This document shows, in pieces, positions 11,872 through 21,783 of a DNA stretch of 32,000 bases. Under the pieces are notes generated by a model. The model worked only from the letters and a program-made list of their open reading frames with translations, did not search any database and was not told the DNA's origin. Each line of letters opens with the position of its first letter. Position 1 is the first letter of the stretch. The DNA comes from Dickeya solani IPO 2222. Its GTDB lineage: Bacteria; Pseudomonadota; Gammaproteobacteria; Enterobacterales; Enterobacteriaceae. The DNA lies in NCBI RefSeq assembly GCF_001644705.1, contig NZ_CP015137.1, forward strand, positions 270,001-302,000, written 5' to 3'. A program made the position numbers and the translations under genes.

Positions 11872-13299
11872 TTAGCTATTAAGCTTATTGCCATATTTTT
11901 CAATAAGATAATCTTTATATTTCGAATAGCGGTTTTGCGCATCCTTGATAGTAGTGACCACCCAGGCGAATGAGCTTTCTCTGTGATTGACATCACAGAC
12001 AAAAGACGCATCAATCCGCGCAATATGGGTTGATTTTCCCACCCCATCCAGAACGGAAGATAATGCAACCTGATCCAAAAACCAGACTGCATTATTCTTC
12101 ATCAAATTATTCCATATAAACAAAGCAACTTTTTTGATAAATCGTCTGGATTCCTCGCCACCGTTAAGGTAAACAAATCCGGCAATGGCTTTTTCCCAGA
12201 ACGGCGAACTTTCGCTTTTCGTCAAAGCAATATCCGCTGACGCAATAGTCTGCTCGACAAATAGCCAGCCATTCTTCATCAGGCAATCCGCATCAACAAT
12301 AATCAACGGCCCGTTGACGATAGGCAACAGATAATTGGCCGCAACAAACCGTCTGCAAGCATAGTGCACATTAATACCGAAAACATCAGCAATCGGTTCA
12401 GCCGTACAGGAAATATTCAGTTCAGGAAACTGTGTACGTTTCGCGTTGATATCATCAGCCGTCACCTCGTCAATATTATAGACGTGAAGGTGTACATTGA
12501 ATTTTTCACGGTTGGTTTCATAAAGTGAGTAAATCAGATGTACGGCATGCTGATGATAATATTTAACATCACACGCAATCAGTATGGTGGGTTTATCATT
12601 ATCATGATTTCTTTTATGTAACCATCGATAATGCTCATAACTGACGTTCTCTGTTTTCGATACCAGTGAACTGAAATCAATATATGAATCAGGATAACCA
12701 CCACTCTTGAATATGGTCGAGACGATCATCAGCAACGTCAGCGGGTCTTCACCAATAAGATAGGCGTTGGCGGTCATTCTTTTGACGAGCAACAGCGCAT
12801 ACTCGTAATCGTCTTCCAGAATACAGGTGAGCAGCAAAATCTTAAAAATAACAGGCACATCCTGTAGAGCGTCCAGGTTGTTCTCAATCAGAGCGACGGC
12901 ATGTTCTATCGCGCCAATCCGGAACAGCAACTGGATAGAGGCGACCAGATATTCAAGATTCGGCGCCAGCTCTAATACGTCGCTAAGATAACTGACAACA
13001 CTGTCGATATACTCGGCCGGCATATGCACCTGCTGACCGCTCCATTTTTCATCTAGCGCCAGATTAGACAAGGCAATCGCATTCAGCAGCAACTTCAGTG
13101 CGCGATCCTGCGCCTCCGGCAAATTGCTCTGGTTGGCAGCCAGATTTTTGTTCAGGGCATAAATATCGCAGCTTCTATTGACAATTACATCAACGACAAT
13201 CTCTTTCGGCAGGTTGCCAATATCGCCAATCATCAACTCCCGGCTGAACACATCCCGATAATATTGATGTGTCGATTTTACATGCGTGTAATCCGCCAT
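11872..13299 (-). CDS. Two-domain protein: N-terminal helical domain of unknown function plus a C-terminal GT-A fold (GT8-like) nucleotide-diphospho-sugar transferase
   Basis: The C-terminal half has GT8-like landmarks: ILIACDVKYYHQHAVHLIYSL (compare LgtC IVFAADDNYAAYL), a HLHVYN strand, YACRRFVAANYL, and a DxD motif in LIIVDADCL (nt 12286-12294). The ATG at 13299 has an AAGG upstream (the ORF-track TTG at 13305 is rejected). The coding call is firm; the function is inferred. Confidence 0.7.
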   Translation of the reverse strand: MADYTHVKSTHQYYRDVFSRELMIGDIGNLPKEIVVDVIVNRSCDIYALNKNLAANQSNLPEAQDRALKLLLNAIALSNLALDEKWSGQQVHMPAEYIDSVVSYLSDVLELAPNLEYLVASIQLLFRIGAIEHAVALIENNLDALQDVPVIFKILLLTCILEDDYEYALLLVKRMTANAYLIGEDPLTLLMIVSTIFKSGGYPDSYIDFSSLVSKTENVSYEHYRWLHKRNHDNDKPTILIACDVKYYHQHAVHLIYSLYETNREKFNVHLHVYNIDEVTADDINAKRTQFPELNISCTAEPIADVFGINVHYACRRFVAANYLLPIVNGPLIIVDADCLMKNGWLFVEQTIASADIALTKSESSPFWEKAIAGFVYLNGGEESRRFIKKVALFIWNNLMKNNAVWFLDQVALSSVLDGVGKSTHIARIDASFVCDVNHRESSFAWVVTTIKDAQNRYSKYKDYLIEKYGNKLNS

Positions 13300-13366
13300 A
13301 AACAACCTTCAATTCATTGTATTTACTGTTACGGCAACATGATCAGACATATTACAGAATGCCTTT

Positions 13367-21300: not shown

Positions 21301-21783
21301 GCAATAGCAGACGATACCTTCCGCAGTCAGATGCTCGCTGCAGAATCGCAGCAGTGCTTCCCGCGTCTCACCACCGATAAGACTGAACAGACCGTGGACA
21401 ATGATGTAATCGAATTTTCCGGGATCGCAAGCCAGCAGAGATTCGAGATCCAGAGCAAATAACGCGATATTGCCCAGTTCGAGCTGTTTTATCAGCGTAC
21501 AGCCTTTTTCAATTTGCTCCGCATCAAGATCAACCCCGACAGACTGCGACTGTGGATTCGCCAGCGCAAAAGGCAGCAAATTGCCGCCATCCTTACACCC
21601 GATCTCAAGCACGCGCGCATTTTCCGGTACAGCCGATGTGATGCCATAAAGATGTGCAGTGGCTTGCAGATGGAAAGGTGCGGTGTAAGGAACAGGAGGG
21701 GCCATCGAACTCAACGGAGTTTTACCAGTATCTTCACCCAGGTCGTCATTATTCGCTAAAGGTTGTGTATCTGGCATGGTCAC
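18331..21783 (-). CDS. 1150-aa fusion protein: class I SAM methyltransferase, a ~390-aa middle region of unknown function (possibly a methyltransferase-regulatory-type domain), TPR repeats, and a GT41 (O-GlcNAc-transferase/SPINDLY-like) glycosyltransferase
   Basis: SAM motif I is [11 protein letters not shown] (aa 58-68). TPR-like helices span about aa 560-735. The GT41 landmarks are [61 protein letters not shown] (compare OGT FNQLYKI with the catalytic Lys) and [24 protein letters not shown] (compare OGT [24 protein letters not shown]). The GTG at 21783 has a GAGGGA 8 nt upstream; an alternative ATG lies at 21777. Confidence 0.88.
   Translation of the reverse strand: [1150 protein letters not shown]

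Follow-up and report, generated by a model that had tools for sequence, protein, structure and literature searches.

The flagellin glycosylation island of Dickeya solani IPO 2222: orthology to the D. dadantii 3937 cluster and a proposed route to its glycan

Introduction

In the plant pathogen Pseudomonas syringae, fgt1/fgt2 and vio genes underlie a modified viosamine, an N-acylated, O-methylated 4-amino-4,6-dideoxyhexose, that is carried on rhamnose O-linked to flagellin and on which virulence depends. For Burkholderia cenocepacia FlmQ, Hanuszkiewicz et al. are said to have described in 2014 a single N-acylated 4-amino-4,6-dideoxyglucose, Qui4N(3-OH-butyryl). Salmonella FliB, the product of a gene in the fliC-fliA gap, methylates lysines of flagellin and provides a functional precedent for methylation of flagellin itself. 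In B. cenocepacia, the transferase gene by fliC-fliD-fliT modifies many flagellin Ser/Thr residues and aids plant virulence (Khodai-Kalaki et al. 2015, PMC4462625), and motility is impaired once glycosylation is lost (PMC4462625). FliB is a [4Fe-4S] enzyme (PMC8598068).

Closer still are the enterobacterial flagellin glycosylation islands (FGIs) surveyed by De Maayer & Cowan (2016, PMC4875605). In the excerpts of that survey drawn on here, islands in the fliC-fliA gap combine a GT41 plus methyltransferase fusion, DegT, FkbM and below-average GC, as in D. solani; glycosyltransferases are classed by CAZy family, with those of one family only in each FGI-positive strain; and Table S2 lists for D. 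solani RNS 08.23.3.1.A an island of 10,470 bp and 6 proteins, with a GC content of 50.3% versus 56.2%.

In D. dadantii, FliC has a mass of 32,170 Da in the wild type, 31,034 Da in mutant A3422 and 28,890 Da in mutant A4277, the stated genotype of which is Dda3937_03424::uidA-kan (Royet et al. 2019, PMC6637903). Disruption of the GT41 gene costs FliC 3,280 Da, the whole of the added mass, and mutation of the second glycosyltransferase leaves it 1,136 Da lighter (PMC6637903); these mass tests covered two of the six island genes. From the order of sentences in the paper, A3422 is apparently mutated in Dda3937_03419, the 475-aa gene. Median celery maceration fell from 109 to 40 and plant fitness was reduced, whereas motility, impaired on glycosylation loss in B. 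cenocepacia, was unchanged; of the six island genes, one alone gave a significant growth defect on insertion in Tn-seq (PMC6637903). We found no published glycan structure in the searchable literature.

Results and Discussion

The island and its D. dadantii orthologue

The window, 32,000 nucleotides of D. solani IPO 2222 (NZ_CP015137.1, positions 270,001 to 302,000), is an exact match to D. solani CP016928.1. According to the ORF list of the window, six intact, co-oriented minus-strand ORFs fill the fliA-fliC gap, placed exactly as in the initial annotation (Table 1), and Pfam/NCBIfam searches returned domain matches for five of the six, those of the ATP-grasp protein being weak. The start of the oxidoreductase gene overlaps the stop of the ATP-grasp gene by 4 nt. 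GC content is 0.509 in the island versus 0.542 in the rest of the window and is lowest in the 475-aa gene (0.435). Neither the ORFs nor the domain search revealed a transposase or integrase gene within or adjoining the island in this window, in agreement with the earlier reading; in contrast, the D. dadantii 3937-type locus has a Y1 transposase of the IS200 type in the interval from fliC to the GT41 gene.

This is the already catalogued flagellin glycosylation island of D. solani and so no fresh discovery. Judged from sequence, its orthologue is the D. dadantii 3937 cluster Dda3937_03424-03419: in both, fliC and fliA enclose the same six genes in unchanged order, identities of the six encoded proteins run from 94.3 to 98.9%, and the two FliC proteins are 97% identical. 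A link of such clusters in soft-rot bacteria to a flagellin mass shift and to virulence, already raised in the initial annotation, is confirmed for the D. dadantii orthologue (PMC6637903). The mass shifts, together with domains and synteny, likewise support its reading of FliC O-glycosylation by two glycosyltransferases with amino-sugar tailoring; possible modification of FliD found no support in the analysis.

Table 1. Features of the window (positions are those of the window)
Feature	Position	Strand	Evidence or remark
fliZ	10281-10793		after fliA; TIGR03823 FliZ 283.9 bits
fliA (sigma-28)	10848..11570	-	NF005413 FliA 354 bits; downstream island boundary
475-aa second glycosyltransferase	11872..13299	-	from ATG; ORF extends to TTG at 13305
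FkbM-family SAM methyltransferase, 361 aa	13403..14488	-	ORF extends to GTG at 14545
Gfo/Idh/MocA NAD(P)-dependent sugar oxidoreductase, 377 aa	14680..15813	-	Pfam
ATP-grasp carboxylate-amine ligase, 395 aa	15810-16997	-	public gene calls: ATG at 16991, 393 aa
DegT/DnrJ/EryC1 PLP sugar aminotransferase, 375 aa	17078..18205	-	Pfam
1150-aa methyltransferase/TPR/GT41 fusion	18331..21783	-	from GTG; alternative ATG at 21777
GT41 catalytic domain of fusion	residues ~766-1140, nt 18364-19488	-	Pfam + PDB
TPR repeats of fusion	residues ~573-731, nt 19591-20067	-	Pfam
PKMT-type methyltransferase module of fusion	residues 29-421, nt 20521-21699	-	PDB + Pfam matches
Candidate sigma-70 -10, perfect TATAAT	21870..21875	-	~87 nt upstream of GT41 gene start; weak -35; consensus match only
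Predicted intrinsic terminator after fliC	21950..21979	-	13-bp stem + T run
fliC, 280 aa	22011..22853	-	Flagellin_N + Flagellin_C; predicted substrate
fliC class-3 sigma-28 promoter TAAAGGTT-N11-GCCGATAC	22923..22949	-	14/16 matches; random 200-nt windows <=12
fliD sigma-28 promoter TAAA-N15-GCCGATAA	23524..23550	+	chance expectation 0.01 matches
fliD	23588-25048		divergent; beyond fliC

The terminator after fliC is predicted to separate the island from fliC transcription, and no sigma-28-like site above background was found upstream of any island gene. As initially annotated, the flagellin is short and Ser/Thr-rich (20% Ser+Thr), with 18 of these residues within positions 141-200. It has 7 lysines, none in residues 141-190, and a calculated unmodified mass without Met of 28,686 Da.

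Proposed mechanism

We consider it very likely that this flagellin glycosylation island, orthologous to Dda3937_03424-03419, works as follows. Before export, in the cytoplasm, the TPR repeats of the 1150-aa enzyme would bind unfolded FliC, and its GT41 domain would O-link a first sugar to several Ser/Thr within residues ~140-200, a step demonstrated by genetics for the orthologue. The 475-aa helical-domain/GT-A enzyme would put a second sugar on the first, a transfer shown by the orthologue mutant with its gene assigned from text order; the linkage is probably alpha, given a GT-A fold of the retaining kind. The other four enzymes would make an unusual donor: DegT would aminate a 4-keto-6-deoxyhexose nucleotide derived from housekeeping dehydratases outside the island, the ATP-grasp enzyme would N-acylate the amine so formed, using a free carboxylic or amino acid, and the Gfo/Idh/MocA oxidoreductase, translationally coupled to it, would complete the residue together with the FkbM methyltransferase. 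The filament would end up with a glycan coat that benefits fitness in plants and leaves motility unaffected, as shown in D. dadantii.

The 1150-aa fusion and its methyltransferase domain

GlcNAc transfer is the best-known activity of GT41 enzymes, and SPINDLY is a 6-deoxyhexose (fucose) transferase. The fusion, by sequence the orthologue of Dda3937_03424, has the Pfam architecture Methyltransf_12, MethyTransf_Reg, TPR and Glyco_transf_41 (141.7 bits), and the top PDB match of residues 606-1140 was SPINDLY (7y4i, 1.9e-74), followed by TtOGT (5djs), human OGT and XcOGT. Its N-terminal part, annotated initially as a methyltransferase, can be named more exactly: residues 29-421 are homologous in sequence to the protein-lysine methyltransferases PKMT1 (5dnk, 3e-40) and PKMT2 (5doo, 2e-38) of Rickettsia, the substrate of which is the outer-membrane autotransporter OmpB. 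Pfam search of the fusion gave no PF21782 (WHD_PKMT) match, Salmonella FliB is unrelated to this domain, and the PKMT relationship does not come up in the excerpts used of De Maayer & Cowan 2016.

This domain probably methylates flagellin itself, the weakest step of the proposal. A competing view, to which we give a little under an even chance, is that it acts on a sugar hydroxyl or amine of the glycan and not on flagellin lysines. Such domains were treated as glycan-modifying in the portion of the earlier survey considered here (PMC4875605), and the exposed segment of the short flagellins contains 0-1 lysines in Dickeya, Pectobacterium, Lelliottia and Enterobacter. In Dickeya FliC that central segment has no lysine, which weakens the idea of lysine methylation; moreover, a PKMT domain is missing from a Caballeronia TPR-GT41 protein that shares 33% identity with the GT41 part across 593 residues. 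Methylation of the glycan, however, sits poorly with the specific homology to protein-lysine methyltransferases over ~390 residues and with the stand-alone PKMT-type relatives, which adjoin flagellin genes in all three sampled genomes (P. parmentieri, A. xylosoxidans and T. aromatica), where the flagellins are lysine-rich and no glycosyltransferase lies nearby.

The 475-aa protein and the order of the sugars

The GT-A label of the 475-aa protein, which has no Pfam or NCBIfam match, holds at the fold level only, on the basis of an AlphaFold2 model (pLDDT 93, pTM 0.90) and Foldseek. In the model, residues ~1-215 are all-helical and TPR-like, and a retaining-type GT-A domain occupies residues ~225-475, its DxD motif (D336-A337-D338) being nearly invariant across 32 homologues; the best Foldseek matches were GT8 3tzt (E 3e-7), GT6 alpha-3GalT/GTA/GTB, GlyE, glycogenin, LARGE1 and UGGT. 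The protein is 94% identical to D. dadantii P0070 and appears from sequence to be the orthologue of Dda3937_03419. Given the statement, in the excerpts used, that each strain has glycosyltransferases of one family, it probably fell outside those classified by De Maayer & Cowan. Both transferases co-occur beside flagellin genes in Pectobacterium, Lelliottia, Enterobacter and Caballeronia.

Most likely, the inner position is taken by the heavier, tailored residue, with GT41 as its transferase, because the published inner:outer mass ratio is 2,144:1,136 and GT41 is closer to SPINDLY than to OGT; the argument assumes that all inner sugars are capped. The opposite polarity, in which GT41 adds an ordinary sugar (GlcNAc or hexose) and the GT-A enzyme a terminal tailored N-acyl, methylated amino sugar, would agree with the usual GlcNAc transfer by GT41, with the terminal viosamine capping rhamnose in P. 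syringae and with the GT-A family members fused to an FkbM domain in five homologues, which would fit a methylated outer sugar. De Maayer & Cowan, in the part of the survey used, likewise assumed GlcNAc derivatives (PMC4875605). We nevertheless think this polarity unlikely: the 1,136 Da lost in the GT-A mutant are about half of the remaining 2,144 Da, which at equal stoichiometry is hard to reconcile with a light inner sugar carrying a heavy acylated one; the GT41 domain is nearer SPINDLY; the FkbM domain of the Caballeronia fusion has no significant similarity to the Dickeya FkbM protein; and the Caballeronia island has both transferases and zero tailoring genes.

Tailoring of the amino sugar

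DesI-type 4-amination of dTDP-4-keto-6-deoxyglucose is the chemistry behind viosamine-type sugars, and the DegT protein (PF01041, 340 bits) is by sequence closest to aminotransferases of this type: its best PDB match was DesI (2po3, 2.5e-64), then perosamine synthase (1e-47), with WbpE and NtdA at ~1e-40, and TIGR04427 DesI scored 288 bits, under its cut-off of 650. It is 70-72% identical to the DegT proteins of Pectobacterium, Lelliottia and Enterobacter islands, the other tailoring genes of which differ; as it is kept in islands without any oxidoreductase, the keto-sugar is probably made elsewhere. The oxidoreductase matched PF01408, PF02894 and PF22725 (each ~68 bits), its top PDB matches being 3v5n (3e-48), 3dty and 7d5m. 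Pfam matches of the ATP-grasp protein were weak, at or below cut-offs, and its AlphaFold2 model (pLDDT 93.8) gave best TM-scores to PurT GAR transformylase (0.75-0.78) and L-amino-acid ligase BL00235 (0.78), with RizA and biotin carboxylase also matched; this likeness to amide-forming ligases is taken as support for a role in N-acylation. In the FkbM protein (PF05050 at about 40.7-40.8 bits, TIGR01444 at 63 bits), the methyltransferase domain spans residues 197-337 and the N-terminal ~190 residues lie outside it; the D. undicola 2B12 island is without the FkbM gene and otherwise identical. The ATP-grasp, oxidoreductase and FkbM genes recur in the same order (42, 53 and 42% identity, respectively) in an unrelated flagellar locus with FdtA, a different DegT and GT2 enzymes, and judging by these matches they form a portable three-gene cassette.

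Could the island instead make a 3-amino sugar on its own, the Gfo/Idh/MocA enzyme oxidizing a UDP-hexose or UDP-GlcNAc at C3 and the product then being transaminated by DegT, with no 4,6-dehydratase required? The pairing is a classic route (GnnA/GnnB, WbpB/WbpE, NtdC/NtdA), the island lacks a dehydratase, DegT does match WbpE and NtdA, and weak NCBIfam matches link the oxidoreductase to UDP-GlcNAc 3-dehydrogenase (67.7 bits) and glycoside 3-dehydrogenase. We judge it rather improbable, however, in view of the better DegT matches to 4-aminotransferases, the closely similar DegT of Pectobacterium and Lelliottia islands without the oxidoreductase, and the tendency of the oxidoreductase to travel with ATP-grasp and FkbM, even in a locus with FdtA/FdtB-type amination.

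That the enzymes work on LPS, ECA or some other surface polysaccharide and neighbor fliC by chance is very improbable indeed: all their families also occur in O-antigen clusters and direct biochemical or mass-spectrometric evidence touches only two of the six genes, but FliC mass was altered in both orthologue transferase mutants (PMC6637903), nothing in the island was identified as a flippase, polymerase or lipid-carrier transferase from ORFs and domain searches, and the gene set stays beside flagellin genes in five genera of two proteobacterial classes.

Relation to described systems

With a 4-amino sugar as the preferred product, the Dickeya system probably has its relatives in the 4-amino-4,6-dideoxyhexose theme of Pseudomonas and Burkholderia, with housekeeping genes supplying the keto-sugar, because DegT is DesI-like and the GT41/TPR protein resembles the Burkholderiaceae flagellin transferase arrangement. 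For the same reasons, the view that the gene set fits no characterized paradigm was overstated. The Burkholderiaceae likeness is drawn from the Caballeronia TPR-GT41 locus; compared with B. cenocepacia, Dickeya has a second sugar and an ATP-grasp ligase. With P. syringae it shares the plant-pathogenic habit and a DesI/VioA-like aminotransferase step, whereas the window has no rml genes or ACP-dependent acyl pathway, acylation would use the ATP-grasp ligase, and the transferases are GT41 and GT-A, with the order of the glycan probably reversed.

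A known island with a characterised orthologue

Flagellin is the main bacterial pattern sensed by plants, and its glycan coat influences virulence. In the fliA-fliC gap of D. solani IPO 2222, an ORF check recovered all six predicted genes on the minus strand at the coordinates of the initial annotation, whose reading of the locus as one for O-glycosylation of flagellin is supported. They are bordered by fliA and fliZ on one side and by fliC, with the divergent fliD beyond it, on the other. The gene ends given in that annotation coincide with the public gene calls, except for the ATP-grasp gene, which is called from 16991 and not 16997, and three longest ORFs differ from the starts adopted (477 versus 475 aa, 380 versus 361 aa, and 395 versus 393 aa). 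The 477-aa translation has an exact match in D. solani CP016928.1, and all proteins looked up fall into clusters that bear the name D. solani. The insert has the features of an enterobacterial flagellin glycosylation island (FGI): it lies between fliC and fliA, combines transferases (GT41 and GT-A fold) with sugar biosynthesis and tailoring enzymes (DegT, Gfo/Idh/MocA, ATP-grasp, and FkbM), and is low in G+C (0.509 versus 0.542 for the remainder of the window), with the minimum in the gene for the 475-aa protein (0.435). The flagellin is indeed short and Ser/Thr-rich (280 aa, 20% Ser+Thr, 18 of these within residues 141-200). Window searches for nonulosonic acid genes returned no synthase, CMP-transferase, or Maf, in agreement with the claim that such genes are missing; the lone match to that pathway was DegT to PseC (224.6 bits, below the cut-off of 423.5). 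FliB models matched none of the island proteins, and the insert does not class as a FliB-type methylation island. No integrase or transposase lies in or flanks the island within the window, in line with the claim that none flanks it. The match of FliZ to PF02899, a phage-integrase N-terminal SAM-like domain (E 5e-5), was set aside as a feature of FliZ itself and not a flanking mobile element. Elsewhere in the window, positions 6500-7500 are low in GC (0.43 versus about 0.55-0.60 in the flanks) and span the upstream region and start of a methyl-accepting chemotaxis gene.

Coordinates of features in the window and in the relatives' loci fetched for comparison
Feature	Coordinates	Remark
Methyl-accepting chemotaxis gene, D. 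solani	window 7268-8890	
fliZ, D. solani	window 10281-10793	
fliA, D. solani	window 10848-11570	
Island, D. solani	window 11872-21783	six genes, minus strand
Gene for 475-aa GT-A protein, D. solani	window 11872-13299	orthologue of Dda3937_03419
GT41 fusion gene, D. solani	window 18331-21783	orthologue of Dda3937_03424
fliC, D. solani	window 22011-22853	
FliC, D. dadantii	L018:3428-4270	
IS200/IS605 Y1 transposase gene, D. dadantii 3937-type	L009:786-1244; L018:4478-4936	between fliC and GT41 gene
ATP-grasp gene, D. solani GBBC 2040	L006:15863-16931	truncated 356-aa product
FliD gene, a D. solani assembly	L005:7806-9179	457 aa
Island, P. carotovorum	L013:4890-9930	
Island, Lelliottia amnigena	L015:14877-19850	
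GT-A-FkbM fusion gene, Caballeronia	L012:3880-5988	702 aa
flg cluster, 44%-GC organism	L022:1-12434	
Stand-alone PKMT locus, P. parmentieri	L023:5001-6695	order fliC-PKMT-fliA
Stand-alone PKMT locus, Achromobacter xylosoxidans	L024:5001-6596	order fliA-PKMT-fliC
Stand-alone PKMT locus, Thauera aromatica	L025:5001-6653	convergent with 567-aa flagellin gene, amid mobile elements

The island is not new: it has been catalogued as an FGI, and its orthologue has been studied genetically. In a screen of 2,000 Enterobacteriaceae genomes, FGIs in the fliC-fliA gap are reported for 307 strains and 42 types, their GT41 enzymes nearly all bear a methyltransferase domain, and a supplementary table lists the island of D. 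solani RNS 08.23.3.1.A (10,470 bp, six proteins, GC 50.3% versus 56.2% for the genome) (De Maayer & Cowan 2016, PMC4875605). The six genes in the fliA-fliC gap of D. dadantii 3937 were studied by Royet et al. (2019, PMC6637903), who labeled them as O-GlcNAc-transferase-like, transaminase, "carbamoyl-phosphate synthase," oxidoreductase, methyltransferase, and nucleotide-diphospho-sugar transferase. Their glycosylation mutant macerated celery less, with motility unaffected, and their MALDI masses for FliC were 32,170 Da (wild type), 31,034 Da (strain A3422), and 28,890 Da (strain A4277); A4277 is stated to be a disruption of Dda3937_03424, the GT41 gene, while we read A3422 as the 03419 mutant from the word order of one sentence (PMC6637903). 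The six window proteins are 94.3-98.9% identical to those of the 3937-type locus, with gene order kept, and the two FliC proteins are 97% identical. The island is therefore orthologous to a system already characterised by experiment, and the tie of the locus to a flagellin mass shift and virulence, as given in the initial annotation, is correct. The glycosyltransferase-dependent modification of about 3.3 kDa is itself documented for D. dadantii only (PMC6637903).

The two loci differ at one border: 3937-type genomes carry an IS200/IS605 transposase gene, as the paper mentions, whereas neither the D. solani window nor the other D. dadantii strains compared (L017 and L020) have it. The contig search for island relatives, which detects close relatives only, yielded one locus, D. 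undicola 2B12, with the same island minus FkbM, an absence also remarked upon by De Maayer & Cowan (PMC4875605). Several D. solani gene calls vary. In GBBC 2040 the ATP-grasp is called as a truncated product with the downstream genes shifted by 80 nt, either through a real frameshift/indel or through a draft-assembly error; one assembly gives FliD 457 aa rather than 486 aa, and several use a later start for the GT41 fusion, which shortens it to 1093 aa.

The island itself adds nothing new, as the genetic link to virulence in soft-rot Dickeya has been published. A literature search returned no solved flagellin glycan structure for Dickeya or Pectobacterium, and a 2025 Pectobacterium paper still treats the role of its own island as uncharacterised. 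The value left lies in a testable biochemical scheme for the glycan: an order of transferases, a DesI-like step that would aminate a keto-sugar from housekeeping genes, and an ATP-grasp N-acylation cassette that would be portable between flagellar loci.

Probable order of the sugars on FliC

In D. dadantii, the GT41 mutant lost all 3,280 Da of the FliC modification and the mutant in the other transferase lost 1,136 Da (PMC6637903). GT41 therefore acts first, as its mutant loses the whole glycan mass and the other transferase mutant only part of it. By arithmetic on these published masses, the inner part amounts to 2,144 Da, about twice the outer part, and so the heavy tailored residue would be the inner one, at equal stoichiometry. 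Such a placement would agree with the nature of the GT41 domain. The fusion matched PF13844 at 141.7 bits (cut-off, 25), preceded by TPR families, and for its residues 606-1140 the match to Arabidopsis SPINDLY (E 1.9e-74) was stronger than those to human (2e-47) and Xanthomonas OGT. SPINDLY is a fucosyltransferase, and fucose is a 6-deoxyhexose; membership in GT41 thus does not imply a UDP-GlcNAc donor, since the closest solved relative transfers fucose. The flagellin of Burkholderia cenocepacia directly bears one N-acylated 4-amino-4,6-dideoxyglucose as its only sugar, and by analogy an inner tailored residue in Dickeya would be consistent with that arrangement.

Two further calculations on the masses were discarded. 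A fit of seven disaccharides (306.3 + 162.3 Da each, with hexose at 162.1 Da) was not used as evidence, since other site numbers and many compositions near 306 Da are possible. The predicted mass of D. dadantii FliC is 28,701 Da without Met and 28,833 Da with it, leaving the 28,890-Da FliC of the GT41 mutant with a residual of +189 Da or +57 Da, respectively; an explanation of this residual by methyl groups was rejected because no mass can be more than 7 Da away from some multiple of 14. The residual could reflect another modification, retained Met plus something else, or MALDI error.

A PKMT-type methyltransferase at the N terminus of the fusion

The most novel lead is the methyltransferase half of the 1150-aa fusion. 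Residues 29-421 are homologous to Rickettsia PKMT1 (5dnk; E 3e-40, 141 bits) and PKMT2 (5doo; 2e-38), with a class I SAM-methyltransferase core and following PKMT domains (PF10119, 56.5 bits), and the motif-I sequence aligns with ILELGCAAGGNL. Dickeya shares the fusion of this PKMT module to TPR-GT41 with many other Enterobacterales. In Alcaligenaceae, Thauera, and several Pectobacterium species, homologues of the N terminus stand alone, with a length of about 530-565 aa; these are 39-44% identical to it and carry PF10119 plus the winged-helix PF21782 (WHD_PKMT). Their genes adjoined flagellin genes in all three loci sampled, with no glycosyltransferase nearby, and the two flagellins counted are lysine-rich, with 10 (P. 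parmentieri) and 22 (A. xylosoxidans) lysines in their variable domains. So far, PKMT-type methyltransferases have been described for OmpB of Rickettsia and AtaA of Acinetobacter, and a literature search found no paper linking PKMT with flagellin or with flagellin GT41 fusions.

By guilt by association, the stand-alone genes beside flagellin genes suggest a second family of putative flagellin lysine methylases. It is conceivable, if on balance doubtful, that these FliB-independent enzymes extend across the beta- and gammaproteobacteria and that the fused form both methylates and O-glycosylates flagellin before export. The methyltransferase domain of the fusion could instead act on the glycan: in Dickeya, lysine methylation of flagellin is rendered less likely by a FliC with only 7 lysines, none of them in residues 141-190, and by the fusion giving no PF21782 match at E <= 0.01, the TPR-GT41 part coming in its place. 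Were lysine methylation of flagellin by PKMT-type enzymes confirmed, the methyltransferase half of the very common GT41 fusions would extend flagellin methylation far beyond Salmonella FliB.

A small family of predicted retaining GT-A enzymes

Sequence searches of Pfam, NCBIfam, and PDB returned no match for the 475-aa protein, and by sequence it falls into no CAZy or Pfam glycosyltransferase family; PF03407 is carried by a single homologue (P0016). Predicted structure was more informative. An AlphaFold2 model built on an alignment of 32 homologues (pLDDT 93, pTM 0.90) consists of an all-helical part (residues ~1-215) and an alpha/beta domain (~225-475), and Foldseek matched the latter in PDB to retaining GT-A enzymes, with probability 1.00 to GT8, GT6, glycogenin, LARGE1, and UGGT, the matches including GT6 alpha-3-galactosyltransferase, blood-group transferases, and GlyE. 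A DxD motif (D336-A337-D338) is nearly invariant among the homologues and, with the modeled Rossmann-like GT-A fold, points to a retaining GT-A enzyme. The earlier label GT-A accordingly stands at the level of fold and does not extend to a family recognizable from sequence. Judging from the model, we infer that the second sugar would be added with retention of configuration.

It is a small family, with 67 matches in 5.8 billion sequences, and its named members are almost all from Enterobacterales (Dickeya, Pectobacterium, Lelliottia, Cronobacter, Cedecea, and Pantoea). In every context examined, genes for a flagellin and for a TPR-GT41 protein lie next to its own. One Caballeronia homologue and four metagenome-derived ones bear a C-terminal FkbM domain. 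A Rosetta-stone argument from these five, by which the Dickeya FkbM would methylate the GT-A sugar, was rejected, as the fused FkbM domain is not significantly similar to that of Dickeya (E 2.6) and the Dickeya FkbM travels with the ATP-grasp and oxidoreductase. The Caballeronia fusion protein has as its neighbor a TPR-GT41 protein of 763 aa without a PKMT domain, adjoining fliC-fliD-fliT. With two transferases and no tailoring genes, this locus amounts to a minimal island, and its TPR-GT41 protein is 33% identical to the GT41 part in the window over 593 residues.

Tailoring enzymes and a recurrent trio

The domain assignments made for the other five products held in Pfam and NCBIfam for FkbM, Gfo/Idh/MocA, DegT, and the methyltransferase/MethyTransf_Reg/TPR/GT41 fusion, with weak matches for the ATP-grasp. 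DegT is closest to DesI (PDB 2po3, 2.5e-64), the dTDP-4-keto-6-deoxyglucose 4-aminotransferase, and its best NCBIfam match, TIGR04427, scored 287.8 bits, below the cut-off of 650. Between island types, no other island protein is as well conserved, at 70-72% identity in Pectobacterium, Lelliottia, and Enterobacter, while the two transferases of the same islands are only 35-51% identical. From the gene content, DegT would draw its keto-sugar substrate from outside the island, the likely source being dTDP-4-keto-6-deoxyglucose made by housekeeping rff/rml genes.

The islands of P. carotovorum and L. amnigena retain the GT41 fusion, GT-A, and DegT but contain no oxidoreductase, ATP-grasp, or FkbM; in place of this trio they have WbqC, two GH130/GH43-like proteins, a GNAT acetyltransferase, and a SAM methyltransferase.

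As modeled (pLDDT 93.8), the ATP-grasp protein most resembles PurT GAR transformylase and L-amino-acid ligases, a predicted fold that fits amide formation between a free acid and a sugar amine. In the window, the ATP-grasp and oxidoreductase genes overlap by 4 nt, and the order ATP-grasp/oxidoreductase/FkbM is kept at two other places: in Enterobacter (51/58/31% identical, respectively, to the window proteins) and in the flagellar locus, otherwise unrelated, of a 44%-GC organism (42/53/42%). From this recurrence, the trio behaves as a portable acylation or finishing cassette, independent of the type of transferase. In the 44%-GC organism the trio lies inside the flg cluster beside FdtA, a distinct, FdtB-like DegT with 30% identity to that of the window, a radical-SAM enzyme, Fe-ADH, and a multi-GT2 protein of 1,353 aa; the locus looks like a different flagellin glycan pathway with the same cassette.

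Expression of the island genes

The fliC gene has a strong sigma-28 promoter (14/16 matches) and a 13-bp-stem terminator 3' of it, and fliD has a perfect sigma-28 site. A scan upstream of each island gene found no sigma-28 site above background (8-11/16, versus 14/16 for fliC). In D. dadantii, the island genes do not form one operon (PMC6637903). A perfect TATAAT precedes the GT41 gene by about 87 nt.
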